NCBI GenBank assembly: GCA_033763315.1
Contig: JANRKS010000031.1
Location: forward strand, 239,015 to 303,014
Length of the DNA stretch: 64,000 nt
From: Deltaproteobacteria bacterium
GTDB lineage: Bacteria; Myxococcota_A; Polyangia; Fen-1088
Reading direction: 5' to 3'
A program made the position numbers and the translations under genes. The notes under the pieces were generated by a model. The model searched no databases, was not told the origin of the DNA, and was given only the letters and a program-made list of their open reading frames with translations. This document shows positions 6,163 through 34,177 of the stretch, one piece after another; within the stretch, counting starts at the first letter, position 1; each line of letters opens with the position of its first letter.

Positions 6163-6165
6163 AAC

Positions 6166-13768: not shown

Positions 13769-13993
13769 TTGCGGATGGTGGAGGAAGAATGGGAAGTCGA
13801 TGCAAGCACCTCGTCGTCGGGCCTCGTCCCGGGCGTGGCGGAGGGCCGAAAGGCTGTAGCGGCCATCTTGGCGCGAGGCGTTTTGCGGGTTTTGGCGAAA
13901 CGCCGTTTGGTCGCAGAGACGACTTGCTTGTCGCCGCCAAGCAAGCCTTGCTTGGACACGGTTAACACTGGAGAGGAGCCCACAAGTGTCTGA
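13769..13993 (+). CDS. Small protein of the DUF2924/recombinase module
   Basis: SD GGAGG; RKAVAAILARGVLRV helix; overlaps the DUF2924 start. Confidence 0.55.
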   Translation: MRMVEEEWEVDASTSSSGLVPGVAEGRKAVAAILARGVLRVLAKRRLVAETTCLSPPSKPCLDTVNTGEEPTSV

Positions 13994-14474
13994 GTCAATG
14001 CTTAACGAAATCAGGGTTTTGTCGAAGATGTCGGTCGCCGACCTGCGCCTTCGGCATGTCGAACTATTCGGCGAGGAATCACGCAGCCGCAACCGAGACT
14101 ACCTCTGGAAACGCATTGCCTGGCGTATTCAAGAAGTCGCCGAAGGCGGCCTCGACGAGCGAGTGAAAGCAAAAGCCAGGGAACTGGCGCGCGACCCTGA
14201 TTTGCGGGTCACGCAGCCTCGCCCATTGAGGGGAGTAACGGTGGTCGACACGACCAAGGGCACCAACCTCAAAGACGAGCGACTACCGGAGCCTGGCACG
14301 ACTTTGCAGCGAGAGTTTCGCGGCCGTACGTACTCGGTAGCTGTACTGCCGGACGGCTTCGAATACGAAGGCGAGCGCTTCAAGTCATTATCTGCCGTTG
14401 CGCGCATGATTACCGGGACCCGCTGGAACGGCCTCGCGTTCTTCGGAATCGCCGGTGCCAAGGAGCCTGCCTAA
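13986..14474 (+). CDS. DUF2924 domain protein
   Basis: RIAWRIQE..EGGL, PGTTLQREFRG, FEYEGERFKSLSAVARMITGTRWNGLAFFG. Confidence 0.92.
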   Translation: MSESMLNEIRVLSKMSVADLRLRHVELFGEESRSRNRDYLWKRIAWRIQEVAEGGLDERVKAKARELARDPDLRVTQPRPLRGVTVVDTTKGTNLKDERLPEPGTTLQREFRGRTYSVAVLPDGFEYEGERFKSLSAVARMITGTRWNGLAFFGIAGAKEPA

Positions 14475-16075
14475 TGGCATCGAAGGCTTTAGTCACAACG
14501 CCCGCGCGGCGTGTGTGCGCCATTTACACGCGCAAGTCCACTGAGGAGGGACTCGACCAAGAATTCAATACGCTCGACGCCCAGCGCGAAGCGGGCGAGG
14601 CGTACGTACAAAGCCAAAGGACTGAAGGTTGGGAAGTCTCCCCGACTCGCTACGACGATGGCGGTTATACGGGCGCCAACACGGACCGCCCAGCGCTACA
14701 AAGGCTACTAGCCGACATCCAGCGCGGAATGGTGGATGTAGTTGTGGTCTACAAGATCGACCGGCTTTCACGCAGCTTGCTCGATTTCGCGAAGCTCATA
14801 GAGGTGTTCGACAAGAACAAGGTCTCATTGGTGGCCGTCACGCAGCAGTTCAACACGTCGACCTCGCTTGGGCGCCTGGTGCTCAACATCCTGCTGTCCT
14901 TCGCTCAATTCGAGCGTGAAATGATAGCTGAACGCACCCGCGATAAGATGCGTGCGGCCCGACGTAAGGGCAAGTGGATAGGCGGCACGATGCCGTTCGG
15001 TTACGACGTCAAAGACAAGAAGCTCGTCATCAACGACGAAGAGACGCAGAAGGTTAAAGCGCTCTTCGACATGTATCTTGAGCATCATTCGGTCCTGAAG
15101 CTCGTCGAGCACGCCAATGGCCTTGGTTGGCGCGCGAAGAGCTGGACGACGAAAAAAGGCATCGAGCATCACGGAGGGACCTGGACAAAAAGCATGATGG
15201 GGCGGCTACTTCGTAACCCGCTTTATATGGGCAAGGTCTCGATCGACGGCGAACTCTTCGACGGCGAGCACGAGGCAATCGTCGACGAAACGAAGTTCAC
15301 GCGGGTGGCGGCGCAGCTCGACGCTGGCCGCAATGGCAGGGACGTGGTGGCCAGGAACCTGCACGGGTTTATGCTGCGGGGCTTGGTTCGCTGCGTAACC
15401 TGCAAAAGCGCCATGATTTCATCGACCGGGCGCTCGAAGGGCAAGGACTATCGCTATTACACGTGCCTCTCCGTCAGGCAAAAGGGCACGGGCGCTTGCT
15501 CGGTGAGAAGCGTGCCTGCCCAAGCGCTCGAGGATTTCGTTGTCGAACGCATACGCGATGTCGCCAAGGCTCCCTCGCTCATCACTGAGACGGTTGCTGC
15601 GGTCGCGGCTGAACGGATGGCCGCGCTGCCTGCGCTGTCTACGGAGCGCAAGCACCTTGAACATGAACGAGCCACCGTTCGGACAGAGGCGCGCAGCCTC
15701 GTCAGCCGACTCGCCAAGGCTGAAGTCAGCGCAGCGACATCGATTACGGAGCGGCTCGCGGAACTCGACCTAAGAACGGCGCAAATCGATGCACGCATTG
15801 CCGAAGTCGTAAGCCAGATTGCAGCTGCCCACGAAGGTGAGATTGCGCCCGAGACCATCGAGCAAGCGTTGAGCGCCTTTGATGAGGTTTGGGATGCACT
15901 TACCGTAAACGAGCGCGGCCGAGTCATTCGCCTCGTTGCCGAACGCATCGACTTCGACGGAATGGCGGGCACCTTATCGATCGCATATTCGCCGACGGGG
16001 CTCGCGCTCTTGCACGAGGAATCGAACAAACCCACCCACACGGGCAAACGTGGCCGTAAGGAGAAAGCAGCATGA
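14474..16075 (+). CDS. Large serine recombinase (resolvase, recombinase and Zn-ribbon domains)
   Basis: CAIYTRKS catalytic Ser, YDDGGYTG..DRPAL, YKIDRLSRS, FAQFEREMIAER, CxxC...YYTC..C. Confidence 0.96.
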   Translation: MASKALVTTPARRVCAIYTRKSTEEGLDQEFNTLDAQREAGEAYVQSQRTEGWEVSPTRYDDGGYTGANTDRPALQRLLADIQRGMVDVVVVYKIDRLSRSLLDFAKLIEVFDKNKVSLVAVTQQFNTSTSLGRLVLNILLSFAQFEREMIAERTRDKMRAARRKGKWIGGTMPFGYDVKDKKLVINDEETQKVKALFDMYLEHHSVLKLVEHANGLGWRAKSWTTKKGIEHHGGTWTKSMMGRLLRNPLYMGKVSIDGELFDGEHEAIVDETKFTRVAAQLDAGRNGRDVVARNLHGFMLRGLVRCVTCKSAMISSTGRSKGKDYRYYTCLSVRQKGTGACSVRSVPAQALEDFVVERIRDVAKAPSLITETVAAVAAERMAALPALSTERKHLEHERATVRTEARSLVSRLAKAEVSAATSITERLAELDLRTAQIDARIAEVVSQIAAAHEGEIAPETIEQALSAFDEVWDALTVNERGRVIRLVAERIDFDGMAGTLSIAYSPTGLALLHEESNKPTHTGKRGRKEKAA

Positions 16076-16776: not shown

Positions 16777-17463
16777 TCACGAGTCAGAAAGAGTCTGGGG
16801 ATCTTGATCGTCAGCGTCTAAATCAGGCACCGCAATGGCGGGTGGGCTTGTCCTCGGATCGCGTGGCGCGCCCTCCTTTTCGGCGGAACGCAGCGCTCGC
16901 TTTGCAATGGCAATCAAGATGGGAATGGACGCGGTCATAAGAGACGCCGTAGCGGGCTCACCCACAGAATCTCCCGCTAGGGCGGTACCCACGAGTTTAC
17001 CGAAGATACCGCGGCGCTTGACGTAAGCCGTGGCCCACCGTTGGGCGATCGCCAATTCGATCTGGTCGGGTTTCATGCTCCGCCGCCGCTGCCATGACAA
17101 GAGCCGCGCTCGGCGTGCAATGAGCTTGCGAAAGAAGGCGCGGAAGACTTTACGCCGTAGCGGCCCTGTGGCCGCCTTTAAGCCCCGCGCCGCGTATTTG
17201 GTAGTGGAAGCCGTCAAAGCCAAAGGATGCGCCCGTAGCGCCACACGCGACGCCCTCGATGCGAGAGCGCGGGACCCGCGCTTGGCCCTTTTTATGACAT
17301 TGAGGGCTCCTGCCACTTCCGCAGGACACAGATCGCAATGCTTAGCCGCCCTTTGCAGCGGAACCCCCTGAGCTAGGGCCGTGGAGAAGCCTTTGAGGTG
17401 GGCCCGATAGGCGTAAGGCGCCCCTATAAGCAAGTCGAAAAGGCGATCGTCACTCTTCGCCAT
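16777..17463 (-). CDS. Highly basic hypothetical protein, possible virion core protein
   Basis: SD AAGGAG before ATG 17463; Arg/Lys/Ala-rich. Confidence 0.7.
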   Translation of the reverse strand: MAKSDDRLFDLLIGAPYAYRAHLKGFSTALAQGVPLQRAAKHCDLCPAEVAGALNVIKRAKRGSRALASRASRVALRAHPLALTASTTKYAARGLKAATGPLRRKVFRAFFRKLIARRARLLSWQRRRSMKPDQIELAIAQRWATAYVKRRGIFGKLVGTALAGDSVGEPATASLMTASIPILIAIAKRALRSAEKEGAPRDPRTSPPAIAVPDLDADDQDPQTLSDS

Positions 17464-18133
17464 CGTTCGCTCCTTGCAAAGCGTCTGCTGGCTTCCCATC
17501 CTCGGCGTGTTGCCCATTCCCAGCCTGTTCAGGTTTGGCTTGCTGGACAGGTGCGGAAACCGGCGCAGGGTTCTTGCGAGGCTGCACAGGCCGGAACTTG
17601 CCGGTTGCCGGATCGAGCACCTGGCCGAATTCGAGCGAATCGACGCGGCCTTCCTCGAAACGGGCGTCGAGCGCACTACAAAGAGCTGGCATCAAGTCGT
17701 CGACTTGACGAACCTGGCGGCCGAGTACCGTCGCAAGCTGACCAAGCACACGCGGCGGCACAAGGAGGCTGCGGCGCATCTCGTCGTATTCGGCGCGCAA
17801 TTGCCAGATTGTGCGCGGCGACTTCTTGGTCGTCATGACGACCTTGGGCAAACTCTTCTTTGCCTCGAAAAGAGCGAATACGGTGGCGGCGGTTTCGTCA
17901 TCCGGATCGCCATTTGCACTGGAGCGCTCGGTAAGACCAGCTCTTTGCAAGAGTACCGCGCGCACTTCGTCGGACCTATACTGCCAAACGCGGCTGCTCG
18001 TGCGCGTGGGGTGAAGTTGGTGGCCGTCCATCATGGCCACTTCCTCATCCGAGACGCCGAGAAGGCTCGCGACTTGCGCTCTCGCGAGCCGTCCTTTGGC
18101 CCCGTGGTCTGTTGACTTCGCCGTTTTATTCAT
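17450..18133 (-). CDS. MerR/excisionase-like HTH DNA-binding protein
   Basis: LARAQVASLLGVS...LHP....VWQYRSDEV; SD GGAGGAG. Confidence 0.7.
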   Translation of the reverse strand: MNKTAKSTDHGAKGRLARAQVASLLGVSDEEVAMMDGHQLHPTRTSSRVWQYRSDEVRAVLLQRAGLTERSSANGDPDDETAATVFALFEAKKSLPKVVMTTKKSPRTIWQLRAEYDEMRRSLLVPPRVLGQLATVLGRQVRQVDDLMPALCSALDARFEEGRVDSLEFGQVLDPATGKFRPVQPRKNPAPVSAPVQQAKPEQAGNGQHAEDGKPADALQGANDGEE

Positions 18134-18222
18134 CTTGCTCCCTCCCCCTTAAACAACCGTGACATGAAACGACTGCGTTCAGCTCTCGATCGAATATGAG
18201 CACGTGGATGAAAGAGACAAGT

Positions 18223-18765
18223 CAAATCCCGGGAGGATTTGCAGCGAGGCATTTGGCCCTTCGGCCGTGAGTAAATGAAGCGGCAACACAAGCACACGCA
18301 AGCCGGACGAAAACCAGCAACGTGCCGATTGTTGCTTTCGCGATTGCGCCGAAGACGCCTAAGGGACCGATATGACGGCATAGCGGTGCGGCAATTTCGC
18401 GGTCACAACGTGCCTTTTCTTCAGCACGTGCGGATGCATCGACACGCACCACCAAACACGGAGCCCGTCGCTTTCGTGACAGCGGCGTCGTCCGCGCCGT
18501 TTGGCGGACTTGCGAGCCATTAGGCGGCGACCGTGGGTGAGCAATATCGCTGCGTTTACTGCACGCGCTCGGTCGTTGCACGTACAGCATGTGGCAGCAG
18601 CAAGTCCGCGAAAACACGTCGGGGCATTCGGGCACTCATCGAAAATGGCGTTCTGTAATCCGCGTCTTGCCGGAAAAACTCGCCGCCACGCTGGCAAGAC
18701 TCTTTCGGGCCCCGACACTTTGTGAGCAATCGCTGCTGCAGGCGGCAATGCTTGCCTCGGGTCGC
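18223..18765 (+). ncRNA. Candidate large structured non-coding element, copy 1
   Basis: Diverged direct repeat of 18828-19369; conserved stems with one compensatory change and G-U pairs favouring the + strand. Confidence 0.55.
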
Positions 18766-18827
18766 AGGCAAAAGCGCTTAAGACCATTGAGTGTGGCTAC
18801 TCGAAATCATCCATCGTAATGACTCAA

Positions 18828-19369
18828 CAGATCCGGGGGATTTGCAGCGATGGGTTGGGCCCCAGCTGCCTTCGAGTGAACCAAAAGCGCAGACACGAGC
18901 ACAAGCAAACGGGCCAAAAGCCAGCAACGTGCTGATTCTGGCCGTCGTTGTTTCGCCATAGCCGGCTAAACCGCCGATATGACGGCATAGTGACGCGGCA
19001 ATTGCAGATCACGAGGTGCCTTTTTATCTGCAGGTGCAGACACATCGACGACCAGCACAAACAACAAGCACAACGATTTCGTCATCGCACCGACTGTCGC
19101 CTCGTTTGGCGGACTTAGAAGCGGTTTGGTCGCTTCGTTCGGCGAGCATTGTTGGTCTCTTGACTGCACACGCTTGGTTGTTGCACGTGCCGCACGCGGC
19201 GGCAGCAAGTCCGCGAAAAGACGTCGAGGCATTCGGGCACTTATCGAAAAATGCGTTTCCGTGACGGGCGTTTTGCCAAAGACGTCGGGGCCACGCTGGC
19301 AAAACTGTTCGGGACCGAGCGCTTTGTGGGCTGTTTCCGCCGCAGGTACAAATTCTCGCCTCGGGTGGC
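18828..19369 (+). ncRNA. Candidate large structured non-coding element, copy 2
   Basis: Offset of about 605 bp from copy 1; shared blocks GGATTTGCAGCGA, CCAGCAACGTGC, CCGATATGACGGCATAG, GTTTGGCGGACTT, GCAGCAAGTCCGCGAAAA, GGCATTCGGGCACT, GCCACGCTGGCAA, GCCTCGGGT. Confidence 0.55.
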
Positions 19370-19628
19370 CACCATAAACGCTGCAGACGAATGACTGGGG
19401 ATGAGCAAGAGCGTCTCCCGCAATAGCTCGACGGGGTGTCCATCTATCTATATGCGAGGGGGGTCGAACATCGCGGAGGGCCGGCGGGAGGTTCATCGAG
19501 AATCGTCGACCATTGTCACCGATCGTTGGCGTCGCGGAAGGCGCTTGCAAAAGCTCCCGGGTTCGGCTCGACAGAACTTGATTGACGGTCCACACCTAAA
19601 TCATGGGCAAGGGGGATGGGAGGTCAAC

Positions 19629-20921
19629 ATGGCAGCGAATGCAAGAGAGAGAATCGATTCGTGGGTAGGGCAGCTCTTGGCGAACACACCACAAGCTGAG
19701 GGCGTCGCGATAGTGCTGGTTCACGCGGCAGTCGACCAAACGCAAAGGGTCGTCAAATCCTGGCGCCTAGAGGATGCCGTCACGAACCTCGAGGCATTGG
19801 TCACAGAGATTGACGAAGTTGCCGAGGGGGACGCAGAGGGATTGGGGGGCCGGCAGCGTTACCTCCTTAAGGCGCAAGTGCGTGGCAAAGACATTGGCAG
19901 CATGGCTGTGCGCTACGAGTTGCGTAACGACGGCGGCACGGCGGCGGTAGATAGCGAGCCTGCCACCACGGCAGGCAGCATGGCGCTTTTGCAGCGGCAT
20001 GCCGAAGGAGCGATGCGGATGATGGTGCAAAGCTTTGGCGGCGTCATCGAATCCTACAAAGAGCAAGTCAACGCGCAAAAGGCACTGATCGCGGAGTTCC
20101 AAAAGCAGGCAGCCGATAACTTCCGGCTGCAAGAAGAGCTGGCCTCACGCAAGCTCGAACAAGACCTGCTGCTGCAAGAGCGTCAGACGCAGCTGCAACT
20201 GAGCGCCGCCAAAGAGGCGAACGAGATTCAAAAGAGCCAACTTCTTTGGGGTCACGGCCTAACGACACTTATGAAAATGGCGCCGTCGTTCTTGTATTAC
20301 GTTTCGGGTGGCAAGGCTGGTACCCGTCCCGAGGAGTTACTCGACGCAAAGGCGACACCAACGCCCGTAAGTGATCAAATTTCTGACGAGCAAGAGCGGC
20401 AACTGTTCGGCAACGCTACGGAAGACACCATCGCTGCGTGGAAAGCCGAGCTTGCTCCCGCGCAAGTCGAGTACCTCATGGCACGGCTCGCCGATTACCG
20501 CGCACGCAATCCTGCCGTCGTTTCGTCAAACGGCGACCCGAGCGTTGCCCCCACGCATGCACCACTCCGTAAAGCGGATACCGCGCTCGCCCAGTTTGCG
20601 ACCCATCTTTACGAAACGCTCGCCCGCCATAGGCACGTACTGCAACCGTTGGCGATGGCACTCATGGCTCGACAAAATTTCGCGAGCCTGTCCGAGGACG
20701 ATGCGCGTCTACTTGGAAAGGTTGCAGCCGACGCTGGAATCGACGGTGTGGCCGAAAGCCAAGGGGGCGAGCGACTATGGATGGCGCTGCTATCCCAAGA
20801 GCTGATGTCGCTTGCTCCCATCGTGACCGGGCTCAACGCCGGAAAGACTTGGTCGGGACTCCCCCAAGGGGACAAGCTGCTGCTCTTGAAGATGGCACAG
20901 CAGGTGGGACAATTGGGCTAG
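19629..20921 (+). CDS. Coiled-coil hypothetical protein
   Basis: SD GGGAGGT; 430 aa with a Gln/Glu/Leu-rich central helix. Confidence 0.8.
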   Translation: MAANARERIDSWVGQLLANTPQAEGVAIVLVHAAVDQTQRVVKSWRLEDAVTNLEALVTEIDEVAEGDAEGLGGRQRYLLKAQVRGKDIGSMAVRYELRNDGGTAAVDSEPATTAGSMALLQRHAEGAMRMMVQSFGGVIESYKEQVNAQKALIAEFQKQAADNFRLQEELASRKLEQDLLLQERQTQLQLSAAKEANEIQKSQLLWGHGLTTLMKMAPSFLYYVSGGKAGTRPEELLDAKATPTPVSDQISDEQERQLFGNATEDTIAAWKAELAPAQVEYLMARLADYRARNPAVVSSNGDPSVAPTHAPLRKADTALAQFATHLYETLARHRHVLQPLAMALMARQNFASLSEDDARLLGKVAADAGIDGVAESQGGERLWMALLSQELMSLAPIVTGLNAGKTWSGLPQGDKLLLLKMAQQVGQLG

Positions 20922-21207
20922 GTTTGGTGCGCAAGCCCAAGTGTCAATGAAACGTAAAAGATGACTCGTGACAGCTAGAAAATAGACTGTTAGAGTAAAT
21001 GTCAGAACACTGGCTCTTGTCAAAAGTGCAGCGGTGGGCCAGGCCCGAGTCGGGATGTCGCATGCGCGGTGCGTTGTGGTGGAGACGGGGCGGCCGAAAC
21101 TGGGCGGTTAGCGCGGGTTCACATTCACGAATGGGTGCTGGCCCGCTTGGTCTGCAGATTGCTTTACGGCCAGTTCATGGGAAAGCGGCGCCTGGAGGAC
21201 AAGACGG

Positions 21208-21408
21208 ATGGTCAATGAGCTGCGATGCAAAGGTTGCAAGACGTTGCTTGGGACCGACGACGATGAAGGTCTCGTCATCCGCCGCGGCGGCATGCAGGCA
21301 ACGGTGCCTCACGCAGAGACGGCATCGATTGTCTGTTACAAGTGCGGACGACTCAACTCAATGATCTTGGCGGCGGGGCGGGCGTCTGCGAACGACGCAG
21401 ACAAATAG
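21208..21408 (+). CDS. Com-like zinc-finger protein
   Basis: ELRCKGCKTLLG...CYKCGRLN; SD GGAGG. Confidence 0.75.
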   Translation: MVNELRCKGCKTLLGTDDDEGLVIRRGGMQATVPHAETASIVCYKCGRLNSMILAAGRASANDADK

Positions 21409-21542
21409 ACTACCGTCGAAGGCTTGAAATATTTTTGACCTAACCGACTGTTTGGATCGTTCAAACGTACGAAGAGCGCATTTGACGCCAAAACCTACGC
21501 GGCCCTCGTGAGCGCATGACGCCGGCCCGATGGAGGGGCCCT

Positions 21543-22760
21543 ATGTGTAAACGTTGGAAGGCGATGGAATGCGCGTTCGAGCGCAGTGTTGCTGGTGCGG
21601 CGGCTCAGAGTTGGAAGTCGCTCGTAGACGCAGAGCCCGAATTGCTCGGCTACGAAGATGGCAAAGCGCTTCTCAATCATCTTCATGGGCAGATGGGATC
21701 GGATGCGGAGCGAGATAGAATCTTGTCTGCGCTCGTGCAGGCGTCGCGGGTGCGTAGTCCGAGTGGGCATCTTGCGCGCGATCTGATCTGGCTTGCACTA
21801 TGGCCTGGGTTGACGGCACTGCGGCGCCGTCTTGCAGGTTGGGGCGCGGAAGACGAAGATGAGCTTTCCGCTCAAATAGCAATGACGTTCACCGAGGTGC
21901 TCGCGCGCCTTGCGCCGACGACGTCGACGAAGGTCGCGGCGACCTTACTTTGGAACACGCGCAAATACGTCTCACGGCTTTTGCACGAAAGCGTGGTCGC
22001 GCGTGGAACCGAAGTCAGCGTCACCACCGAAAAGATAATGAGTGCCTCGGACACAGCTGGCTGTGACTGGACGGAGTTCATCTCAGATCTCGTCGCCCAG
22101 GCGGGCCCTGATGCCGAACTCGTCTTGGCTTGCGTCGTCGAGGGACTCACTGTGCGCGAGGCGGCGACACGTTGCCAGTTGCCGGCCGAAGCCATCAAGA
22201 AGCGTATGCAGCGAGTGATGCGGCGGTTGCGCGCGAACGTTTCTGCGAATTTTGCGCAGTCTGATGTCCCTTTTTCCGCAGAAAAAGAGCTTATAGGAGG
22301 TGAAAGACGCAAACGCTTGGGGCCTGACCAACGGGAAGAAGTTGGCGAGCGAGCCCGCGCAGCGCAACCGGAGGCAAGGCATGTGCTCGAAAAGCAAATG
22401 GCTCCCGTCGACAAAGCTCAAGCTCGAAAGACGCGCCCGGCATTACACACGCGTCGTCGGATACGAAGCCACCTTCGCCACCTGCGGCGCCTGGGAGGTG
22501 CATGCAGAGCGCTTAGAAAAACCAAGGACGCAGACGCCATGAAGACGATGACATTACCCGTGGCGGTGTTGGTGGCGCCCGCCAACGAGCGAAGTTTGTC
22601 GGGCGCCGAGAAGGTGGTGGCCTATTGCGATGTGTGTCGGCGTTGGGGCGAGCGAGGCAGCCTTCACGTTTGCGGCGAGAACTGGAGCGAACACCTGCTC
22701 TCCGTTTTGGCCATCACAGGACAAAGCACAGCAGCACCCACCACGAGGAGGCCCCAATGA
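21543..22760 (+). CDS. Phage-type sigma-70 region 4/ECF-like protein; the 3' part may be a separate gene from ATG 22539
   Basis: LVLACVVEGLTVREAATRCQLPAEAIKKRMQR HTH; the long C-terminal extension looks unrelated. Confidence 0.65.
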   Translation: MCKRWKAMECAFERSVAGAAAQSWKSLVDAEPELLGYEDGKALLNHLHGQMGSDAERDRILSALVQASRVRSPSGHLARDLIWLALWPGLTALRRRLAGWGAEDEDELSAQIAMTFTEVLARLAPTTSTKVAATLLWNTRKYVSRLLHESVVARGTEVSVTTEKIMSASDTAGCDWTEFISDLVAQAGPDAELVLACVVEGLTVREAATRCQLPAEAIKKRMQRVMRRLRANVSANFAQSDVPFSAEKELIGGERRKRLGPDQREEVGERARAAQPEARHVLEKQMAPVDKAQARKTRPALHTRRRIRSHLRHLRRLGGACRALRKTKDADAMKTMTLPVAVLVAPANERSLSGAEKVVAYCDVCRRWGERGSLHVCGENWSEHLLSVLAITGQSTAAPTTRRPQ

Positions 22761-23128
22761 AGATTCACATCGCCGCTCGCCGCGTTCTGTTGCCGAAGGC
22801 TAGCGCCGTCGCCGAACACCTCGAAGCCGCTGGGCATCGGGTGGTGTCACGCTGGCTTCGTGGTCCTGCCAAGCGCGCGACGCTAGCGGAGCAAGCCATG
22901 GGGGACATGACGGACATCGCGGTCGCCGACTGTCTGGTGCTGATCGGGGAAAAGGCCGACGAGGAAACGGGAGCGCAGCGAGATTGTGAGCGTTACGTGG
23001 AGTTTGGGTACGCGCTCAAGTCAGGAAAACGCCTTTGTGTCTTTGGTCCCCTCGAGACCGCGTTCGGGCACTTAGAGCACGTACAACAATATCGCTCGAT
23101 CCGGGAGCTTCTCGATGGGTTGCGCTAA
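22757..23128 (+). CDS. Nucleoside 2-deoxyribosyltransferase-like protein
   Basis: KIHIAA..LEAAGHRVVSRW..DMTDIAVAD..VEFGYA..GK; SD GAGGAG. Confidence 0.7.
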   Translation: MKIHIAARRVLLPKASAVAEHLEAAGHRVVSRWLRGPAKRATLAEQAMGDMTDIAVADCLVLIGEKADEETGAQRDCERYVEFGYALKSGKRLCVFGPLETAFGHLEHVQQYRSIRELLDGLR

Positions 23129-23432
23129 TCGAAAGGGCGCCTTGCCCGACGCCGCTCAAGCGCTGCTTGCCGAGCACGAGGCGAAGCTCGAGGCTTTGGC
23201 AAAGTTATACGTGGGTAAAGTCGAGGCCGTACGGGCGGCGCGGGAAAAGGCCATCGCCACGATTCGCTCGAAGGCGAGTCAAGCGCTCATCGAGCTCGTC
23301 GCGGATTTCGAGAAAGAGCGTTCGATCATGCTGGTGAAGTGTGCGCTCGCATGTGAGGGCGCCCGGGGCGAGCCCGATGCCGCCGCCGCAGACGGGGTTC
23401 CACGCCGTCAACGCAGAACTGGAGCCAACTGA
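23115..23432 (+). CDS. Helical hypothetical protein
   Basis: Overlaps the upstream gene; coiled-coil-like. Confidence 0.55.
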   Translation: MGCANRKGALPDAAQALLAEHEAKLEALAKLYVGKVEAVRAAREKAIATIRSKASQALIELVADFEKERSIMLVKCALACEGARGEPDAAAADGVPRRQRRTGAN

Positions 23433-23746
23433 TGCTCCCTGCAAGTGCTCTTAATGAGCCGTGCAGAAGTCGTGTAACCAAAGGGCATGGCTTCGACATA
23501 TGGGCTCAGTATTTCGCCGACCCACGTCTCGGCGCCACCAGCGCACTTCATTTGGCAGCGATGGCAGTGGACTTACCGACGCACCGTGGGCATGAGCATA
23601 GGGCTCGACGTCTCTTGCTCGTTGAAGGTGTCATCGCGGGACCACGAGGGCGAACGAAGTTTGTCGCCGCCAGGCTCTTTGCAAAAGAGCGCGGAGCGCG
23701 CGCTCGAAACGACCAGTTTTCAAACGTAGGAGAGGAGGCGATGCAC

Positions 23747-24118
23747 ATGACCGATAAGGAGTTGTCCGAATTTGGCGGCAAGCTTTATGAAGCCGTGTTG
23801 TTCACGCCGCTTCCAGCCGCCACGGTCTTCAGCTTGGCGCTCGCCGTTCGGCAAGCCATTCCGTGGGCGCACCTACCGCAGCATCTAAAGTTCGCGGTGT
23901 TCAAGATTGCCGCCAGTTGCACAGGCGAAGTGGTGGCCGATGCGCCGTCGCACGCGGCGAGCGACGCTGCGCCAGAGAGTCACACAAGTTCAGGCGCCGT
24001 GGTGGACCACGTGCCGCTCCGCGACGATGTGGATGTCGAGCCAAGCGTCAGCGCCGAACAAGTTGGCGCCTCGCTGCCTGGCACATCAGCAGGAGATGGC
24101 GAAGCGTCAGCGGCCTAA
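23747..24118 (+). CDS. Hypothetical protein
   Basis: SD AGGAGG; alternative ATG at 23741. Confidence 0.65.
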   Translation: MTDKELSEFGGKLYEAVLFTPLPAATVFSLALAVRQAIPWAHLPQHLKFAVFKIAASCTGEVVADAPSHAASDAAPESHTSSGAVVDHVPLRDDVDVEPSVSAEQVGASLPGTSAGDGEASAA

Positions 24119-24171
24119 GGCCGCGAGGGGTTGGAAAAGTTCGTTTCACGCCTTGGGAAGGGGATAAAGAC

Positions 24172-24702
24172 ATGGCACTCGATTCATTGACACGGACACC
24201 GTCAGGAGGGCTCGAACAAAGCCGCCGCGCGCCTTCGGTGCTCGAACGCTTGGCAGCGGGGCAAAACCGGTTCTTGCGGCTAAGCGGGCGACCGTCGGGA
24301 ACAGGGCAAAACAACGAGGGGCTGATGCACAGGCTCAAAGCCGCCGGCATCGCGCAAGCCGAATCGGGCGCCGTGTCGCTCGCGCTTGGGTATCTCGCCG
24401 CGCGCTCCCCAGAACACTTGCGTGTGGGGCCGCTGCCGCTTGAGTTCCTGATGGGTGTGGGCAGCCACGCGGTAGCGCTCATCGCCTCGCCCGAGGCCGC
24501 TGTCCATCTGCACTCGGTAGGCACAGGGGCCATCGATTCCTTTTTGAATTCGCTTGGCCGAGGCTTTGGCCGGCGGGCTCGTAAGGCGGCCGGGCTACCG
24601 CCGCCAGCAGAAACATTCTTGGCTGGCGACGACGGTGCCGAGACATCGGGGGGCGGCGCGCTTTCGGACGAAGAGCTCGCAAGTCTTGCAAGGCGAATCT
24701 GA
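24172..24702 (+). CDS. Gly/Ala-rich putative virion membrane protein
   Basis: Weakly hydrophobic helices, acidic tail; directly upstream of the capsid candidate. Confidence 0.65.
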   Translation: MALDSLTRTPSGGLEQSRRAPSVLERLAAGQNRFLRLSGRPSGTGQNNEGLMHRLKAAGIAQAESGAVSLALGYLAARSPEHLRVGPLPLEFLMGVGSHAVALIASPEAAVHLHSVGTGAIDSFLNSLGRGFGRRARKAAGLPPPAETFLAGDDGAETSGGGALSDEELASLARRI

Positions 24703-24798
24703 CGAATTTTGTGAAATGCCCGCGCAGCGCGCGGCATAGAGCAGCGCGGTCGAGGGTCGAAGGGTTTGTGGAATTTCAATTGTGGGGAGGACACGCAA

Positions 24799-25473
24799 AT
24801 GCACACGGACATCATGGGTGACGATTTTCTCGGCGACGACTTGGGCGACGATTTGGAGGGCGAAGAGCTCGGCGAAGACGAACTCGGCGACGACATCATG
24901 GGTGACGACATCATGGGCGATGAACTCGTCGGCGTAGACGACATCCTTGGTGACGACATCATGGGCGACTACTTGGTGGGTGCTCAAGCGGCGCGACGCC
25001 GAAGACTTCGCCAGGCACGGCCAGCCGTTTCAGCCGCCGCGGCGGCGAATGCGAAGAAGGCTCTCATGCGCAAGGCGATTTTGGCCAAGCGCTTGCGAAA
25101 CGCGGCCATCGTCCACAAGCGTGGTCCAAGCAAAAGCCGTGTGCAGCCACTCGGCTTTAGCCGCGAGGCGATTGCGCCTGGTGATACGACCGAAATTACG
25201 GCACGGCCACAGGTGCTGTTTCGTGGCCGCCGTTTGCTGGTGGGGTCGACGATCGCGGGCAGTTTCACCATTGAAGACATCAAGGTGGGCCGCAACAGCC
25301 AATTCGTAGGCACGGGCCCGCAACCGGCGGAAGCGTTCCGCGACACGGCAACTGGCGACAATATCTCGCTCGATACGTGCAAGCCTGGCGTCGACATCAG
25401 CATCACGGTCCGCAACATCACGGGTGCGGCGGCGGACTTTCGCGCGACACTGTTCGGCGACGTGGTCGAGTAG
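24799..25473 (+). CDS. Candidate single-jelly-roll major capsid protein with acidic repeat propeptide and basic linker
   Basis: SD GGAGGA; C-terminal ~112 aa of alternating beta-strands (QPLGF..TEITARPQVLFRGRRLLV..FTIEDIKVG..ISITVRN..FRATLFG). The fold is inferred. Confidence 0.6.
   Translation: MHTDIMGDDFLGDDLGDDLEGEELGEDELGDDIMGDDIMGDELVGVDDILGDDIMGDYLVGAQAARRRRLRQARPAVSAAAAANAKKALMRKAILAKRLRNAAIVHKRGPSKSRVQPLGFSREAIAPGDTTEITARPQVLFRGRRLLVGSTIAGSFTIEDIKVGRNSQFVGTGPQPAEAFRDTATGDNISLDTCKPGVDISITVRNITGAAADFRATLFGDVVE
24808..24981 (+). repeat. 12 tandem Gly-terminated acidic peptide units (DDIMG-like; 12-18 bp)
   Basis: DIMG DDFLG DDLG DDLEG EELG EDELG DDIMG DDIMG DELVG VDDILG DDIMG DYLVG; gacatcatggg occurs four times. 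Confidence 0.92.
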
Positions 25474-25712
25474 GGCGAGCAGCCGAGAAGCGATTTCAAA
25501 CGGGCGGCGGGTAGGGGAGGGAAGAACGCGCGCGCGTTCACAAGAAGAGCCGCGCAGTGGACGCGGCCATCAGCTGCGACGGCGGCTGCAAGGGGGGAGA
25601 GGGCGGCGGCGTGGAGTGTCGAGGCAGTGGCGGCGGGAGAAGCGGGGCCCGAGGCGTCGATAGCCGAAGCATGGCGAAGGCGCCTCGGGCCAGGCGGGAA
25701 GAAGGTGCACCG

Positions 25713-26198
25713 ATGATGCAACCAGTGGTCTTCAAGGTTCAGTTGTTTAAAGACGCAGACGATCGGCCTCGCTCGCAGGAAGCGCTGCTGTGGATGCTCG
25801 AAGCGCTTTGTAAGATCAACGACGGCCATCTCGCCGAGCGGCCTTACCCACCGCTTTACGAATCGGGTGTGCGGTACCAACGGGAACTCGGCACCGAAGA
25901 GTGGCTCGACATTCCGTCAATCATTCAAGCGGGGTGGGGCGACTGCGAAGATTTGGCGTGTTGGCGTGTCGCGGAACTCCGCCGGCAGGGGCAGCACGCG
26001 GGACCTTATGTGCGGTACCGAAGCCTCGACGGCGTTTTTCATTACCACGCGCTCGTCATGCGCTATCGGCGTGTGCTTCGACCCGGTCCTAGGGGTCGCT
26101 TGGTGGAAAGCTTCGTGCCCGACCATATCGAAGATCCGTCGAAGAAATTGGGCATGGGCTCGGCCGCCGATGCCATCCAAAGGGAGCTCGAATCGTGA
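25713..26198 (+). CDS. Transglutaminase-like cysteine protease
   Basis: GDCEDLACWR (Cys), YHALV (His), EDPS (Asp) triad order. Confidence 0.8.
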   Translation: MMQPVVFKVQLFKDADDRPRSQEALLWMLEALCKINDGHLAERPYPPLYESGVRYQRELGTEEWLDIPSIIQAGWGDCEDLACWRVAELRRQGQHAGPYVRYRSLDGVFHYHALVMRYRRVLRPGPRGRLVESFVPDHIEDPSKKLGMGSAADAIQRELES

Positions 26199-26911
26199 TT
26201 CTCTTTGCCGGCATCGCCCTTGCCATCGTGCTCTTGGCCCTTTTTCGCAAAGGCGCGAGCAACGAGGAGATTGTCTCGAGGCTTAGCAAGCAAACAGATC
26301 CGCGCGTCGTCGCCATTGCGGCGAAGCTCTTGTCGGAGCGGGGCATGAGACTCACGGCCGAGGTGCTCGAAGCGCGCGCAAAGCGACTGGCTGCGGGCAA
26401 CAATGCGGTAAGCGGTGATGAAGGTGCATCGACACTGCGCTCGCCGTTTTTGGCGGCGTCAGATGGAGCGTGGACCAATTTTGTGCGGCTACTGGTGCAA
26501 AGCGATCCGCACGCAAGGTCTTCGCGAGGAAGGCTCGGTCGTTTCGATATTCATCTACGCCGGCTCGAAGAAATCGGGTGGGTGACTGGGGTTCGCTTCA
26601 ACGAAGAAGGGGTGGCACAGGCCAAGTGGGTGCCACCCATGAGCGAAGAGCGCTTCCTAGCCGATGCATGGGCGCAATACCGGGCGCTCGTAGCGACGCT
26701 CAAGCTTTGTCGCCGTCAACTCGTGGGTTGTGGCGTCGACGCGGCCACGGGAGCGCCGGTCAAGGATTCAGGGCCCACATTGTCGGGTGTCTTGGCGGTG
26801 GCCCATCGATTGGGGGCGGAGGGCGCAGTCAAGTGGCTGCGCTCGCCGCTCGAGCGGGCTCGGCAGCCGGTGGCAACGGCGCTGTTTAGGAGCGCGAACG
26901 GACTTTTCTAG
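26195..26911 (+). CDS. N-terminally anchored protein with lysozyme-like domain
   Basis: N-terminal TM; GRLGRF..L..IG, FLAD..AQ, TLSGVLAVAHRLG..G..KWL. Confidence 0.55.
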   Translation: MILFAGIALAIVLLALFRKGASNEEIVSRLSKQTDPRVVAIAAKLLSERGMRLTAEVLEARAKRLAAGNNAVSGDEGASTLRSPFLAASDGAWTNFVRLLVQSDPHARSSRGRLGRFDIHLRRLEEIGWVTGVRFNEEGVAQAKWVPPMSEERFLADAWAQYRALVATLKLCRRQLVGCGVDAATGAPVKDSGPTLSGVLAVAHRLGAEGAVKWLRSPLERARQPVATALFRSANGLF

Positions 26912-26922
26912 GAGGACGCACG

Positions 26923-28254
26923 ATGCACATCCAAGGCGACATAAAGATTTGGTCTGACGGACACAAAGTGTGCGCTCGACTCGAGGCCGATGGCCCCGAG
27001 GGTCCCATCGTCATTCAAGCCTCTGCACCGATAGGTCCCGTGAGACGCAAAATGGCCCGCGTGTTCGCTCGCCAAGGCGTCACTGTGTCGGGCGCGGACC
27101 CCGCGTTTGCCGCCAAGGTGCAACAAGTGGCGAGGCGCAAAGCGCTCAAGCGTCTACAGCGCATGGCCCCGGGAGCGTTTCGCAAAGGCGGGCTCGGTCC
27201 CTACCTTGCGCAACAAGAGCTGCTCAAGCGCAAGAAGCGTCGACGCGCGTTGGCTGGGGCCGGGCGACCGGTGGGGGCAAAGCCCGTGGGACCACTGCCA
27301 GCCAAGAAGACTCGACCCGCCCCGCAAAACTGGCGCGCACGAATGCGCGCGACGGCACGTGGGCCGGCCGGAGGGCCGCGCGCTCTTTTGCCTGCGACAC
27401 CGAAGAAGGTGGCTGCGCTCATGGCGCCTTCGTCGCTGCTCGTGCGCCCGTCAATACCGCGGCCCATACCGTCGCGCAGCCCTGGAGGTGGACGTGGTGG
27501 CGGTAGTGCCCACGGCTCATCGTCGGATAGGCCTGGGGCCGCTGCGCGTGAAGAGGACGGACTCGATGCGGCAAGCGAAGCCAGGGACGAACAAAGTCAA
27601 GCGCCGACCGGGCAAGATGAGGAATACGCCGAAGGTGAAGCCGATGCTGGACAAGACGCTGGGGACGGCGGCGAAGGTGACGAAGCCGACGCCGAAGATG
27701 AAGAAAGCGAAGGCTCCGATGAAGGTGCGGAGCAAGAAGGCGAAAGCGACGGCGTAAGCGGTTACGGTTTTCGCGGCAGGCGTCAACGCTTCGATGAGCG
27801 ACGCCAATTGCAGGCCCGGCGCAACATCGCGATCAAACGACTACGCGCAGCCATGAGGCTCTTGTTGGCGGCGTACCACGATCCAGATGCACGCCAGCGC
27901 ATCGTCGATATCGCAGCCATGGCTGGCGAAGGACATCCCGGCGCGAAGAAGAGCTTCAAGGCTTTGGCGGTGGCTCACAAGCTGCACAAGAAGGCACAGG
28001 TCCGATCGGCCACTAAGGCGCTCGCGCCGCGACGACCCGTTTACGGCAAAGCTTTAGCTACAAGCAAGGCCAAGCCGCAAAACAAGGCTCTCATAGCCAC
28101 GATAACGAAGGCGACTGCGTCGCGAGCATCATCCACGACGAACGCAAAACCAAAAGCGCTCACGGCACCATCGCCACCCTTTACACCGGGTACGCCCGCG
28201 GACGCCGTGAGGTGGTGGGACATCCTGGCGGCTTGGCGACGCGGCATGGGTTGA
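26923..28254 (+). CDS. Low-complexity basic/acidic/basic protein, candidate core or scaffold protein
   Basis: SD GGAGGA; Arg/Lys-rich blocks flank an Asp/Glu block of about 70 aa. Confidence 0.75.
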   Translation: MHIQGDIKIWSDGHKVCARLEADGPEGPIVIQASAPIGPVRRKMARVFARQGVTVSGADPAFAAKVQQVARRKALKRLQRMAPGAFRKGGLGPYLAQQELLKRKKRRRALAGAGRPVGAKPVGPLPAKKTRPAPQNWRARMRATARGPAGGPRALLPATPKKVAALMAPSSLLVRPSIPRPIPSRSPGGGRGGGSAHGSSSDRPGAAAREEDGLDAASEARDEQSQAPTGQDEEYAEGEADAGQDAGDGGEGDEADAEDEESEGSDEGAEQEGESDGVSGYGFRGRRQRFDERRQLQARRNIAIKRLRAAMRLLLAAYHDPDARQRIVDIAAMAGEGHPGAKKSFKALAVAHKLHKKAQVRSATKALAPRRPVYGKALATSKAKPQNKALIATITKATASRASSTTNAKPKALTAPSPPFTPGTPADAVRWWDILAAWRRGMG

Positions 28255-28323
28255 GGACGCGACAAGAGGCGATTCGGCGCAACGTTAAGACCACAAAAAG
28301 GCAACGGCATTACGGGGAGGCAG

Positions 28324-28614
28324 ATGATGGCAAAGCTCGACGAAGTGGAACAAACGGCGATCGATTTCATCAGGGGTGCAGGCCGCTATGGCGTGTATCT
28401 GACGCACTTGGGGCTCGAGGTCGCCGGTGTGGCCGATTGGCTCGAGAACCAAGTTCCACGACTGCGACGCGCATTTGGCCTCATCGCCACGGTGGCCACG
28501 ACGGAATGCGTTCGGGCAGCCGAAGAGTTTCGTGACGTCCATGGCGGGCCGAGTCGCCCACCGAGGGACGAAGAACACCGCCGCAATCACAACGCGTCCG
28601 CCCGGGAAATGTAG
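28324..28614 (+). CDS. Hypothetical protein
   Basis: SD GGAGG; lies within the operon. Confidence 0.55.
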   Translation: MMAKLDEVEQTAIDFIRGAGRYGVYLTHLGLEVAGVADWLENQVPRLRRAFGLIATVATTECVRAAEEFRDVHGGPSRPPRDEEHRRNHNASAREM

Positions 28615-28636
28615 CGACGTTGCCGAGGAGACGACC

Positions 28637-29362
28637 ATGGCAGTGAACGGCACCACGAACTCGCCTTACGAGCCTATCTTCGCCAAGTATGCGGGCGCGA
28701 TTCCGCAGGCGTATTTGCGAACGCTCGCCTACAAGGAAAGCAGCTTCAAAGCTGACGTGGTTCATCCGCAAAGCAATGCCACAGGGCTCTTTCAGATCAC
28801 TAGCATCTGTCTGCAGGGTTTCAACAAGGCCAAGGGTACGGCGTTGAAGCTCGCGCAGCTAAAGGATCCGAATCTCAACACGATTGTGGCTGTCTATCAT
28901 CTCGGCCATGTCATAGGCGTGTACGCCCAAGTCCGATCGCTAAAGCCCGATTGGACGAGCCGCCGTTGGCTCGAACTCCTTACGCTCGGTTGGAATGCGG
29001 GCCACAACGCCATCATCGGCCTTGCAAAACAAATGGAAGCGTCAGGCCTACCGCCCGAGCGCATCACCGTCGATTCCGCAAGCCAGCTCGCGCGAGCGAC
29101 AGGCAAGGGCAAATACGTCGCCGAACCAGATCGCGTGGCTTGGTCGAAAAGCGTGGCAACCATGTTTTTGGGCGGTGGAATCATCCCCACGGGCAAGTCG
29201 CGACTGCGGCAACTGGCGTCGATGTTGCCGGCTCTGCCGGCGGCCAAAGGCGGCGGCATTGCGGTCGCTTTCGCGCTCGCAGCCGCTGGTGCCGCACTGA
29301 TTTTGAAGAAGAAGGAGGCAAGCGATGACTTCACGGGAAGAGCAGCTTATGCCCGCACCTGA
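28637..29362 (+). CDS. Lytic transglycosylase (SLT) with C-terminal membrane anchor
   Basis: AYKESSF, ATGLFQI, LKDP..N, WNAG; hydrophobic tail followed by KKK. Confidence 0.88.
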   Translation: MAVNGTTNSPYEPIFAKYAGAIPQAYLRTLAYKESSFKADVVHPQSNATGLFQITSICLQGFNKAKGTALKLAQLKDPNLNTIVAVYHLGHVIGVYAQVRSLKPDWTSRRWLELLTLGWNAGHNAIIGLAKQMEASGLPPERITVDSASQLARATGKGKYVAEPDRVAWSKSVATMFLGGGIIPTGKSRLRQLASMLPALPAAKGGGIAVAFALAAAGAALILKKKEASDDFTGRAAYART

Positions 29363-30398
29363 TGTAACGGCGGCGCCCGAAACCGTTGCCGGCGCCGACG
29401 GCGCGGCGCCCGCCAAGGCGCTGCTAAGGCGCATCGATGCCAGCATCGATGCATTTGGCCAGGCGGTTCGCAGAAGCACCGTAGAAAAAAGGCTTCGCAA
29501 AGATTGGCAGGACTTTGCTCGGCAATGGCGAGCGTTCTTGCTCGAGGAGAAAAGCCATCCGTCGACGACCGGAATGCGTGAAGCCTCTCGCTTTGCCTCA
29601 GAACTTGTCGACTGGAAGAAGCGCTTTACAGCGGCCCTTCGACATCCGGAGCGCGACGGAATGGAAGGAGCGCCTGTCTCGCCATCGCCATCGCCATCGA
29701 AATCTATATCCTCCGAGACCCCCACGGTCACGCCCGGCTCGATTCGCTACGAGTGGCAGGCGAGTAAAAAAGAAGTTGACGACGTCGACCGCGACATCAT
29801 GCCTAGCGACGTGAGTGACACGTTCAAGCAGGCGTGGCGACGCTACGCGGGCCATTGGCAGCAAGCCTTCGAGCGCTGCACCGCCAATCAACGCCTCTCG
29901 CCAGCTGCGAGTTGGCGGCTGGCTCGCGCCTACCGCCATCGCACTCGAGCGTGGGCGCAAGCGTTCGGGCGTGAGTGCTCGGGAAATCATGCGAGCTCCG
30001 AGCTAGGCGCACTCATCGTCACCCCGGGCGCGATGCTCGACGAACTCAACACCGTCAACAATGGCGTCAAGCAACTGGACGCCGACATCAGCGCGAGCAA
30101 GGTGCGGGAGGCTTTCAAAAAAGCGTGGGCCGACTTCACGGTCGAGTGGAAGAAGTTCTACGACAGCAAGCAAGGCTTCTTTAGCCGCACGTGGGGCTCA
30201 ACGATGGAGAAGACCATCGAATACCGCAAGCGCGTGGATGAGTGGCGCGCGGCTTTCAACCGCGAAGGCGGCCTCACGACCGGGCCCACGCTCAATGTCC
30301 CCGAGCCGAAGGGTGCAACAGGAGGCTCTTGGAGGTGGTGGGCCGTAGGCGGCTTGCTGGCAGGGGGCGCCTATATCGGTGTCAAGGTGCTGCGATGA
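29325..30398 (+). CDS. Protein with three Trp-rich helical repeats and C-terminal TM anchor
   Basis: WQDFARQWRAF / WRRYAGHWQQA / WADFTVEWKKF repeats; WWAVGGLLAGGAYIGVKVLR tail. Confidence 0.75.
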   Translation: MTSREEQLMPAPDVTAAPETVAGADGAAPAKALLRRIDASIDAFGQAVRRSTVEKRLRKDWQDFARQWRAFLLEEKSHPSTTGMREASRFASELVDWKKRFTAALRHPERDGMEGAPVSPSPSPSKSISSETPTVTPGSIRYEWQASKKEVDDVDRDIMPSDVSDTFKQAWRRYAGHWQQAFERCTANQRLSPAASWRLARAYRHRTRAWAQAFGRECSGNHASSELGALIVTPGAMLDELNTVNNGVKQLDADISASKVREAFKKAWADFTVEWKKFYDSKQGFFSRTWGSTMEKTIEYRKRVDEWRAAFNREGGLTTGPTLNVPEPKGATGGSWRWWAVGGLLAGGAYIGVKVLR

Positions 30399-30440
30399 GG
30401 GCGGGGCTTATGGCGCTGACGACAGCGCGGGAGGGTGGCA

Positions 30441-30653: not shown

Positions 30654-30690
30654 GCTACCGGCAACCAGACGCACGGGCAAGGAGCAAGCG

Positions 30691-31907: not shown

Positions 31908-31908
31908 C

Positions 31909-32979: not shown

Positions 32980-33035
32980 CGTGACGAGATGAATTTCTTG
33001 TGACTGGGCTGGAAAACAAAAGGGGAGGAGCGGAC

Positions 33036-33626: not shown

Positions 33627-33628
33627 TC

Positions 33629-34123: not shown

Positions 34124-34177
34124 AAAAATACACGGCCACGAAGGCCGGGTGTGAACAGCCAAGAAGGAGAGCGCAAC

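Follow-up and report, generated by a model that had tools for sequence, protein, structure and literature searches.

Divergent-promoter control regions are found in temperate phages and integrative elements, where a regulator can bridge operators at the two promoters, as in the looping between OL and OR of lambda. Binding of DNA at multiple sites is also seen with the MerR-like protein BldC and with excisionases. Other described arrangements include hin/hix and fimS, which are invertible promoter segments flanked by inverted repeats. The RNAs ROOL and GOLLD have dense conserved structure. They are described as large ornate RNAs that often occur in prophages (10.1101/2024.12.08.627333; PMC5737381). 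The locus described here lies in a 64,000-nucleotide (nt) stretch of the genome of a Deltaproteobacteria bacterium (Myxococcota_A; contig JANRKS010000031.1, positions 239,015 to 303,014), referred to below as the window. An integrated mobile element with a large serine recombinase surrounds it. Between two divergent genes of this element are two side-by-side, diverged copies of a 605-nt non-coding unit, which form a genuine tandem repeat; the same insert is present once in each of two related metagenome contigs, L019 and L020. We tentatively propose that the insert is cis-acting spacer DNA with putative protein-binding sites and not a large folded RNA. An earlier reading of this region, made from the letters without database searches (the sequence-only reading), had left a DNA-level role open, and this is now the explanation that we favour, although with less than even confidence.

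Among the described systems, the insert appears to work most like an extended divergent-promoter control region. As in the immunity and control regions of this type, it is located between a gene for what may be a small DNA-binding protein and the main operon, short motifs stand inverted beside both genes, and the neighbouring protein is modelled with a winged helix similar to those of BldC and Xis. It is unlike them in its length (0.85-1.5 kb of non-coding DNA here versus about 0.1-0.3 kb), in consisting mostly of an accessory insert that is missing from relatives and in having a motif that matches no known operator.

A tandem repeat between two divergent genes

Most of the 1,495-nt gap between left227 (17450-18133, minus strand; 227 amino acids) and right430 (19629-20921, plus strand; 430 amino acids), the first gene of a rightward operon, is taken up by the two units. 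Copy 1 extends from 18223 to 18827 and copy 2 from 18828 to 19432, head to tail with copy 1; both are 605 nt in length, non-coding and described here on the plus strand, and their boundaries were placed from a MAFFT alignment of the copies. The copies are about 70-75% alike overall. A self-blastn of the repeat aligned 602 nt at 70.3% identity (E-value: 3e-94), and the direct-repeat families D1-D6 are in register, with start-to-start distances of 603-607 nt and 74-82% identity over ungapped stretches. The best kept stretch of the pair is at alignment columns 401-460, where the copies are 85-90% alike, as compared to about 26-30% divergence overall. The repeat families, self-blastn and MAFFT alignment bear out the sequence-only reading, which had described two collinear, diverged copies approximately 605 base pairs (bp) apart and had placed them, correctly, between divergent genes. 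The span that it gave (18223-19369) had the right location, but the units reach slightly further, to 19432.

Contigs from soil samples, 89-97% alike, span the junction between copy 1 and copy 2 (X1, 18760-18961; X2, 18794-18942), and copy 2 is also covered by contigs of other samples (X1, 19016-19386; X4, 18910-19340). Because contigs from other samples cross the unit junction, the tandem form is not an assembly artefact. In the organism's own genome (7.6 Mb, 40 contigs), no copy was found beyond the two tandem units. The insert is a discrete block of approximately 650-700 nt that ends in inverted repeats and is found in only some of the relatives, and in this it resembles insertions of the miniature inverted-repeat transposable element (MITE) type. 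It differs from these in that only the two tandem copies occur in the genome, and no target-site duplication was seen by eye. A MITE or repeated mobile insertion was rejected as an explanation, as there are no dispersed copies in the organism's own genome and a sequence model scored nothing above 22 bits in 88 other genomes of its order.

Relatives of the locus were collected using the flanking proteins. The protein sets contain 20 relatives of right430 (31-60% identity) and three of left227. A right430 profile search identified four loci in metagenome and genome collections and gave matches in 13 of 88 other genomes of the organism's own taxonomic order, the distribution that we assign to this element family (serine recombinase, DUF2924 protein and mostly unknown genes). 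A single-protein search of a phylum sample gave one weak match (E-value: 5e-5) in 400 other genomes; this type of query undercounts, as the later profile search showed. At the DNA level, a search of the genomes of 60 relatives produced only one 34-nt match (E-value: 2.6e-4), and a sequence-only model of the 172 best-conserved columns, run against 89 genomes, scored 17.8-21.8 bits outside the organism's own copies, which was taken as noise. Matches in viral contigs to the invariant 17-mer described below (12 loci, L005-L016) were rejected as chance, with only those 17 bases matching.

Gene order is kept among these relatives (recombinase, g16072, g16777, left227, the gap, right430 and a sigma-like gene), and the synteny of left227 is seen in 13 loci. 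The gaps of L019 and L020 are 848 and 845 nt and contain one insert copy each, as far from the left gene as copy 1 is. These two contigs are 79% alike overall and 70.6% alike in their gaps. The repeat is therefore conserved beyond its own genome, as had been anticipated: as single copies in L019 and L020, and as a tandem in other soil samples. Ten loci (L021, L023-L031) are without the insert and have gaps of about 200-310 nt, so that it is absent from 10 of the 14 syntenic loci; in five others (L032-L036), the 1.5-kb flanks contained no match to left227, and these loci were excluded from this gap-length count. The insert is thus accessory to one sub-lineage and doubled in the lineage of the window. 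In the remaining locus, L022 (a Kofleriaceae metagenome-assembled genome), the gap is 1,822 nt and holds a 414-amino acid open reading frame (ORF; L022:3536-4780, plus strand) with about five zinc-ribbon-like repeats of the form W-W-R-C ... C-P-F-C. As L022 carries a protein gene at this position, the slot between the two divergent genes, and hence between their promoters, accepts different cargo: a gene with zinc-ribbon repeats in this case, the non-coding insert in others.

The short gaps of L024-L031 (approximately 200-235 nt, e.g., L027:2232-2453) have features of their own. By eye, they contain two or three head-to-tail words of the type CC[AC][CT]GGGA, as well as an inverted repeat with a spacer of approximately 17 nt. 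The arms of this repeat vary in a matched way between lineages (AGTGGACA/TGTCCACT, CCCAGGAC/GTCCTGGG and AGTACAC/GTGTACT).

Coding potential, folding and rate of change

The sequence-only reading considered the copies to be non-coding, and the tests of codon position, synonymous and non-synonymous change, indels, ORFs and homology agree. Mismatches between copy 1 and copy 2 are spread evenly over the three codon positions. Non-synonymous changes greatly outnumber synonymous changes in all six frames, both for copy 1/copy 2 and for L019/L020. The copies are separated by 1- and 2-nt indels and the L019/L020 inserts by 1-nt indels. ORFs led by a ribosome site do not recur at corresponding positions of the copies and orthologues. 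When ten ORF translations were compared to Pfam, nine had no match at an E-value of 1 or below and one had a chance-level match (E-value: 0.31; 11.3 bits, cut-off 27). The longest ORF (142 amino acids) has no relative among 5.8 billion proteins. A protein-coding gene or recent pseudogene was rejected based on the lack of a frame with synonymous excess, the frame-breaking indels and the lack of homologues, and coding appears to be excluded as far as sequence can tell.

The sequence-only reading interpreted the copies as a large structured non-coding RNA or as folded single-stranded DNA (ssDNA), based on covariation between them, and suggested a comparison with Rfam and RNAalifold folding of the copies with their homologues. 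Rfam 15 (4,227 models, including ROOL, GOLLD, OLE, group II intron domains and riboswitches) gave no match at an E-value of 1 or below for positions 17000-21000 and none at the gathering score for the whole window, so that no known family is matched. In the L019 and L020 contigs, the only match was a sub-threshold one to snaR-A, inside a coding region. The minimum free energy (MFE) z-scores against shuffles were +0.30 and +0.64 (plus strand) and -1.67 and -1.02 (minus strand) for RNA, and +0.25 and +0.23 for ssDNA. The structural alignment consists of copy 1, copy 2, L019 and L020 (611 columns), and its power is low, as it has only four sequences, two of which (L019 and L020) are close. On this alignment, RNAalifold gave -37.4 (plus) and -39.7 (minus) kcal/mol, within the range of column shuffles (z-scores of -1.25 and -1.50, respectively). 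The best of 26 local consensus windows had z-scores of -2.2 and -2.7, and the pairwise consensus folds had z-scores of -1.36/-1.68 (copy 1/copy 2) and -2.53/-1.02 (L019/L020).

The complementary pairs quoted in support of the RNA are present at 18223/18235, 18322/18376, 18504/18602 and 18664/18692. On the four-sequence alignment, these four helices have 85.2% paired cells, versus 84.3% with shuffled partners (a level equalled or exceeded by 152 of 500 shuffles), and both-sided changes at 4 pairs versus 2.2 expected (47 of 500 shuffles have at least as many). Two of the helices, the 18223/18235 hairpin and the long-range one at 18504/18602, are short of 2-4 pairs in L019 and L020, uncompensated. 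GTGCCG and CGGCAT pair through a GC-rich tetramer with hardly any variation. The hairpin GTCTTGCCG/TGGCAAGAC (18664-18700, plus strand; 19270-19305 in copy 2) keeps only its outer five pairs; these are found in all four sequences and include two both-sided changes. Only for copy 1 does the MFE fold correspond to this hairpin. In the X4 contig, a T>G change at 19271 falls in this hairpin with no partner change among the changes listed. A C>G change at 19114 in X1, in the 5' arm of the long-range helix, has no 19209 change among those listed and was not counted as evidence.

The covariation signal of the two copies thus does not extend to the orthologues, with the limited power of four sequences, two of them close, and it is a clean example of two-copy covariation dissolving once orthologues are added. 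Neither the large structured RNA (Rfam, folding energy, consensus fold, helix shuffles) nor the folded ssDNA (ssDNA MFE) is supported. This result is an absence of support and no proof of absence, and there may still be a weakly structured or unstructured transcript. Compared with ROOL and GOLLD, the insert is similar in its size class (approximately 600 nt), in being non-coding and in its location in a mobile element. It is dissimilar in having no Rfam match, excess folding energy or supported covariation, and in drifting at approximately the synonymous rate. On the minus strand at 18305-18330, and at the matching places in copy 2, L019 and L020, there is a 5-bp hairpin (CAGCA-CGT-TGCTG type) followed by a T-run; the terminator scan flagged a hairpin of this type only in L020 (3451-3433), and its stem is too weak for a terminator.

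The rate of change was assessed using the four-fold sites of the flanking genes. Between L019 and L020, insert identity is 0.66-0.71, versus 0.54-0.64 at four-fold sites. Between the window and these two loci, it is 0.40, versus 0.35-0.50 at four-fold sites that are themselves near saturation (0.28-0.34 expected from composition). The conservation profiles of the two pairs are uncorrelated (Spearman 0.13). Most of the insert is thus changing almost freely, at close to the synonymous rate, which fits neither a large ornate RNA nor a gene.

Conserved sites and the candidate control region

Within this drifting background, four islands reach a cross-lineage identity of 0.6-0.7: TTGCAGCG at the left edge, a block at 18367-18383, TTTGGC at 18500 and CAAGTCCGC.AAA at 18601. 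Several 8- and 9-mers are common to copy 1, copy 2, L019 and L020 at matching places, and one of these, the 8-mer TTGCAGCG, has the same place in all four. The second island is a 17-mer that is identical in both copies (18367-18383 and 18974-18990, plus strand; cross-lineage identity of 0.62 over columns 161-180). The third and fourth islands belong to an inner inverted pair on the plus strand. Its left half, which the sequence-only reading quoted as GCGGACTT, is at 18500-18513 (19105-19116 in copy 2), and its right half is at 18600-18613 (19207-19218 in copy 2); the halves are 93% complementary over 14 nt in copy 1. The exact 12-mer AAGTCCGC[CG]AAA occurs four times in the window, and all four occurrences are within the two copies. 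The left half is degenerate in L019 (3 mismatches) and L020 (2 mismatches), while all four sequences have an unchanged CAAGTCCGC in the right half. Because the halves evolve independently, separate binding sites fit better than a helix.

These islands bear on whether the insert is a functionless remnant. It could be decayed cargo, such as a dead gene or fossil insertion, with islands that are leftover or due to chance and a duplication that arose by neutral slippage. Divergence near that of four-fold sites, absence from most syntenic loci, the lack of a common conservation profile for the two pairs and the lack of a structure signal, ORF or family match would all be expected of such DNA. However, CAAGTCCGC and TTGCAGCG are exact across lineages whose four-fold sites are nearly saturated, and both copies keep the 12-mers, the 17-mer and the 85-90% stretch despite their overall divergence. 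The tandem form occurs in other samples, and the translations of the long open frames match nothing. We therefore regard a remnant as unlikely.

A second inverted repeat, here called the bracket, encloses the insert. Its left arm, CCCGGGAGGATTTGCAGCG (18228-18246, plus strand), contains both the first of the hairpins quoted earlier and the TTGCAGCG island. Its right arm, CGCTTGCAAAAGCTCCCGGG (19542-19561, plus strand), lies outside the repeat units, 68-87 nt before the right430 start. The left arm matches the reverse complement of the right arm at 17 of 19 positions with one gap. A second copy of the left arm, one base shorter, is at the start of copy 2 (18832-18849, plus strand); taken alone, it does not rank first among the inverted matches to the right flank. 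In L019 (3105-3124 and 3782-3801) and L020 (3337-3356 and 4006-4025), the arms are 20 nt in length and 80% complementary, and the bracket is thus present in all three insert-bearing loci. The arms change together, with CGGGAG in both arms of the window and CGGCG[AG] in both arms of L019 and L020. This co-evolving pair is the one lead worth a bench test, whether as an operator, a recombination site or an RNA stem.

If the bracket arms were recombination sites, the segment could be invertible, with a recombinase flipping 650 nt (1.3 kb here) and so pointing an internal promoter at either the regulator gene or the rightward operon. The imperfect repeat of approximately 20 nt has a length typical of such sites and, as in hin/hix and fimS, flanks a non-coding segment of a few hundred nt next to regulated genes, exactly between the divergent pair. 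Recombinase genes are 2-4 kb away, arms read by one recombinase would be expected to co-change between lineages, and the segment is free of constraint over most of its length, like those of known switches. We nevertheless consider inversion very unlikely. A single orientation was seen throughout (window, L019, L020 and contig pieces covering the left arm, X3 18006-18267), and contigs of four runs had no strand-changing joints, although contigs drop minority forms. In addition, unlike in hin/hix and fimS, no small invertase gene or internal promoter was recognised, the recombinase of the element being of the large integrase type and not a small Hin/Gin-type invertase.

The regulator that would act on these sites is most readily sought in left227. 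This protein has no Pfam or PDB sequence match. Its AlphaFold model has a mean predicted local distance difference test score (pLDDT) of 69, with residues 15-67 at 75-90. Foldseek aligns 49 columns with BldC (TM score: 0.75-0.79, normalised to the target; root-mean-square deviation: 1.5-1.7 Å; 31-33% identity) and also matches Xis of mycobacteriophage Pukovnik and RacA, although with E-values of only 0.06-0.2. The BldC, Xis and RacA structures matched by the N-terminal 50 or so residues are DNA-bound MerR-type winged helices. As a fold-level hint, left227 may resemble a winged-helix DNA-binding protein, with a MerR/excisionase-type winged helix modelled at its N-terminus.

With these components, the control-region reading can be set out in the following way. 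A non-coding insert restricted to one lineage, in the middle of a serine-recombinase element's divergent control region, would have been duplicated in tandem long ago. The gap does have the position of such a region, between left227 and the rightward operon with synteny kept. The bracket arms and inner pair would be candidate binding sites for the element's own regulator, for which the neighbouring winged-helix protein left227 is the obvious candidate. Most of the approximately 600 nt that separate the sites would serve as filler, either setting their distance or leaving room for the two promoters to be joined in a loop held by protein, and the duplication would have contributed one more spacer along with a third outer site. 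If this is correct, the mobile element, itself uncharacterised, would have a control region of an ordinary kind but of unusual length.

Several observations weigh against this reading. The bracket is modestly above chance, its scores being reached by 8 of 500 shuffles for the window, 45 of 500 for L019 and 47 of 500 for L020, and the L019 and L020 brackets are not independent, as the contigs are 79% identical. The concerted change of the arms is equally expected of an RNA or ssDNA stem or of a pair of recombination sites. Homology between the left arm and the CC[AC][CT]GGGA words of the short gaps was tried and rejected, as the similarity is within shuffles at all 10 loci. The word GGAYTTGC has five of its seven window matches in the repeat, but it was defined after seeing the sites. 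The fold match of left227 is short (the 49 columns and E-values given above) and its whole model is mediocre (predicted TM score of 0.32 together with the mean pLDDT of 69). A spacer does not explain why 600 nt of filler would be kept, twice, in a compact mobile element. Finally, double-stranded binding sites leave the asymmetry of A-runs on the plus strand unexplained.

This asymmetry is found in all four insert sequences. Runs of at least four A on the plus strand number 5, 5, 5 and 6, versus 1.1-1.6 expected, while T-runs number 1, 2, 1 and 3, and A exceeds T throughout. In copy 1, A-tracts at 18611, 18642 and 18674 are 31-32 nt apart, and two are phased in copy 2. The A-tracts approximately 31 bp apart that the earlier reading noted in copy 1 are thus present, but they are not kept as runs of at least four in L019 and L020. 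Scans of the window region, L019 and L020 found no sigma-70-like promoter or terminator-like site on the plus strand. The minus strand of the window region has four terminator-like sites and one that is promoter-like; L020 also has four of the terminator-like kind on this strand, and in L019 no site of either kind was flagged. Nothing in these scans was conserved, and the promoter-like site (19627-19600, minus strand) was rejected because its hexamers are, by eye, approximately 15-20 nt apart in the relatives. Sigma-54-type spacing around TTGCA did not fit, also by eye.

The A-runs are among the observations that suggest a transcribed insert, in which the plus strand would encode an accessory non-coding RNA cargo gene or a long operon leader, closed by pairing of the bracket arms, perhaps as a processing stem, and weakly structured inside. 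As RNA, the arms would form 16-17 pairs of 19-20 (counted by eye), and their matching changes at three adjacent positions would be compensatory if read as pairs. The persistent outer five pairs of the 18664/18692 hairpin include G-U pairs that fit the plus strand only, the plus-strand consensus of L019/L020 has the z-score of -2.53 noted above, and the slot can hold expressed cargo, as it carries a plus-strand protein gene in L022. Set against this are the lack of a thermodynamic or consensus-structure signal on either strand, the uncompensated breakage of two of the quoted helices, divergence near the synonymous rate over most of the length and the absence of sigma-70-like promoters and terminator-like sites from the plus strand in the scans. 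Because the left arm is only 94 nt from the left227 start, a plus-strand promoter would have to sit inside the left227 upstream region. Among public sequencing runs, no RNA run was listed for this sequence. Transcription of the insert is possible, but we do not consider it probable. It is more doubtful whether the insert is a cargo module of an undescribed integrative-element family of soil bacteria, doubled in the lineage of the window. Its bracket would then either form the long co-varying stem of a plus-strand RNA domain, making the module a new non-coding RNA peculiar to the lineage or a processed leader, or delimit a segment that is flipped by a recombinase or looped by a regulator as a switch from the regulator gene to the main operon and back.

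The phased A-tracts (three in copy 1, two in copy 2), the inverted repeats and the intergenic location between divergent genes of a mobile element could also suggest an origin of replication or transfer, or a packaging site, acting via folded ssDNA or iterons. However, the ssDNA fold energy equals that of shuffles, there is no short direct-repeat family within the unit, the GC content of the repeat is 0.57 (versus 0.58-0.62 around it) and the A-tracts are not kept in L019 and L020. This explanation fits least and is highly improbable, because most relatives lack the insert, which would be impossible for an essential origin.

Flanking genes and the surrounding mobile element

The non-coding DNA on either side of the repeat forms two single-copy cores of the control region. 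The left core (18134-18227), which is the 5' region of left227, is not duplicated, and its 94-nt counterpart is highly conserved when L019 and L020 are compared. The right core extends from 19433 to 19628; its last 100 nt or so align with L019 and L020 (blastn identity of 66-70% over 79-99 nt, E-value: 3e-9), and ATCATGGGCA within it is exact in the window, L019 and L020. The left227 start is preceded by GGAGG. The right430 start is an in-frame ATG at 19629 that follows GGGAGG, and database protein P0001 has the same 430 residues. The right430 protein has no Pfam or PHROG family.

The large serine recombinase is encoded at 14474-16075 (plus strand). It has the Pfam domains Resolvase (E-value: 2e-39), Recombinase and Zn_ribbon_recom and is similar to the phrog_95 integrase (E-value: 9e-117). 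Just upstream is a DUF2924 gene (13986-14474; E-value: 1e-43). A literature search on DUF2924 with serine recombinases, the one literature search aimed at this element family, found only unrelated work. Two ORFs on the minus strand, 16777-17676 and 17450-18133 (left227), overlap by 227 nt. The true start of the former is probably downstream of the listed GTG, because homology to relatives begins at approximately residue 53-69.

Genes downstream of the repeat encode a sigma-region-4-like protein, an SLT transglycosylase, an amidase/endolysin-like protein, a weak holin-like protein, methylases and many family-less proteins. From 19629 to 35000, almost all rightward genes are without a Pfam or PHROG family; the exceptions are the SLT transglycosylase (28427-29362), the amidase/endolysin-like protein (30601-31428, E-value: 5e-7) and the weak holin-like protein (31425-31907). 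The sequence-only reading assigned the repeat to a phage. This label is unproven: no capsid, portal or terminase family was detected among the window ORFs scanned, and no relatives were found in a phage collection (blastn) or in viral contigs (single-protein and alignment-based scans). The element could be a very divergent virus or an element of another kind.

Two other gene clusters are found in the window. Outside the mobile element, a VgrG-type spike protein (1345-3807, minus strand) is encoded near a protein (6166-7047, plus strand) that carries the immunity domains Imm71 and Imm72, and positions 1345-7047 are a type VI secretion effector/immunity neighbourhood. The cluster at 45894-58563 encodes a protein with RNase-H-like and SF1 helicase parts (1,153 amino acids), a UvrD-like helicase with a PD-(D/E)XK tail (958 amino acids), an N6/N4 DNA methylase (621 amino acids) and a 1,180-amino acid phrog_11902 protein, and looks like a defence island.

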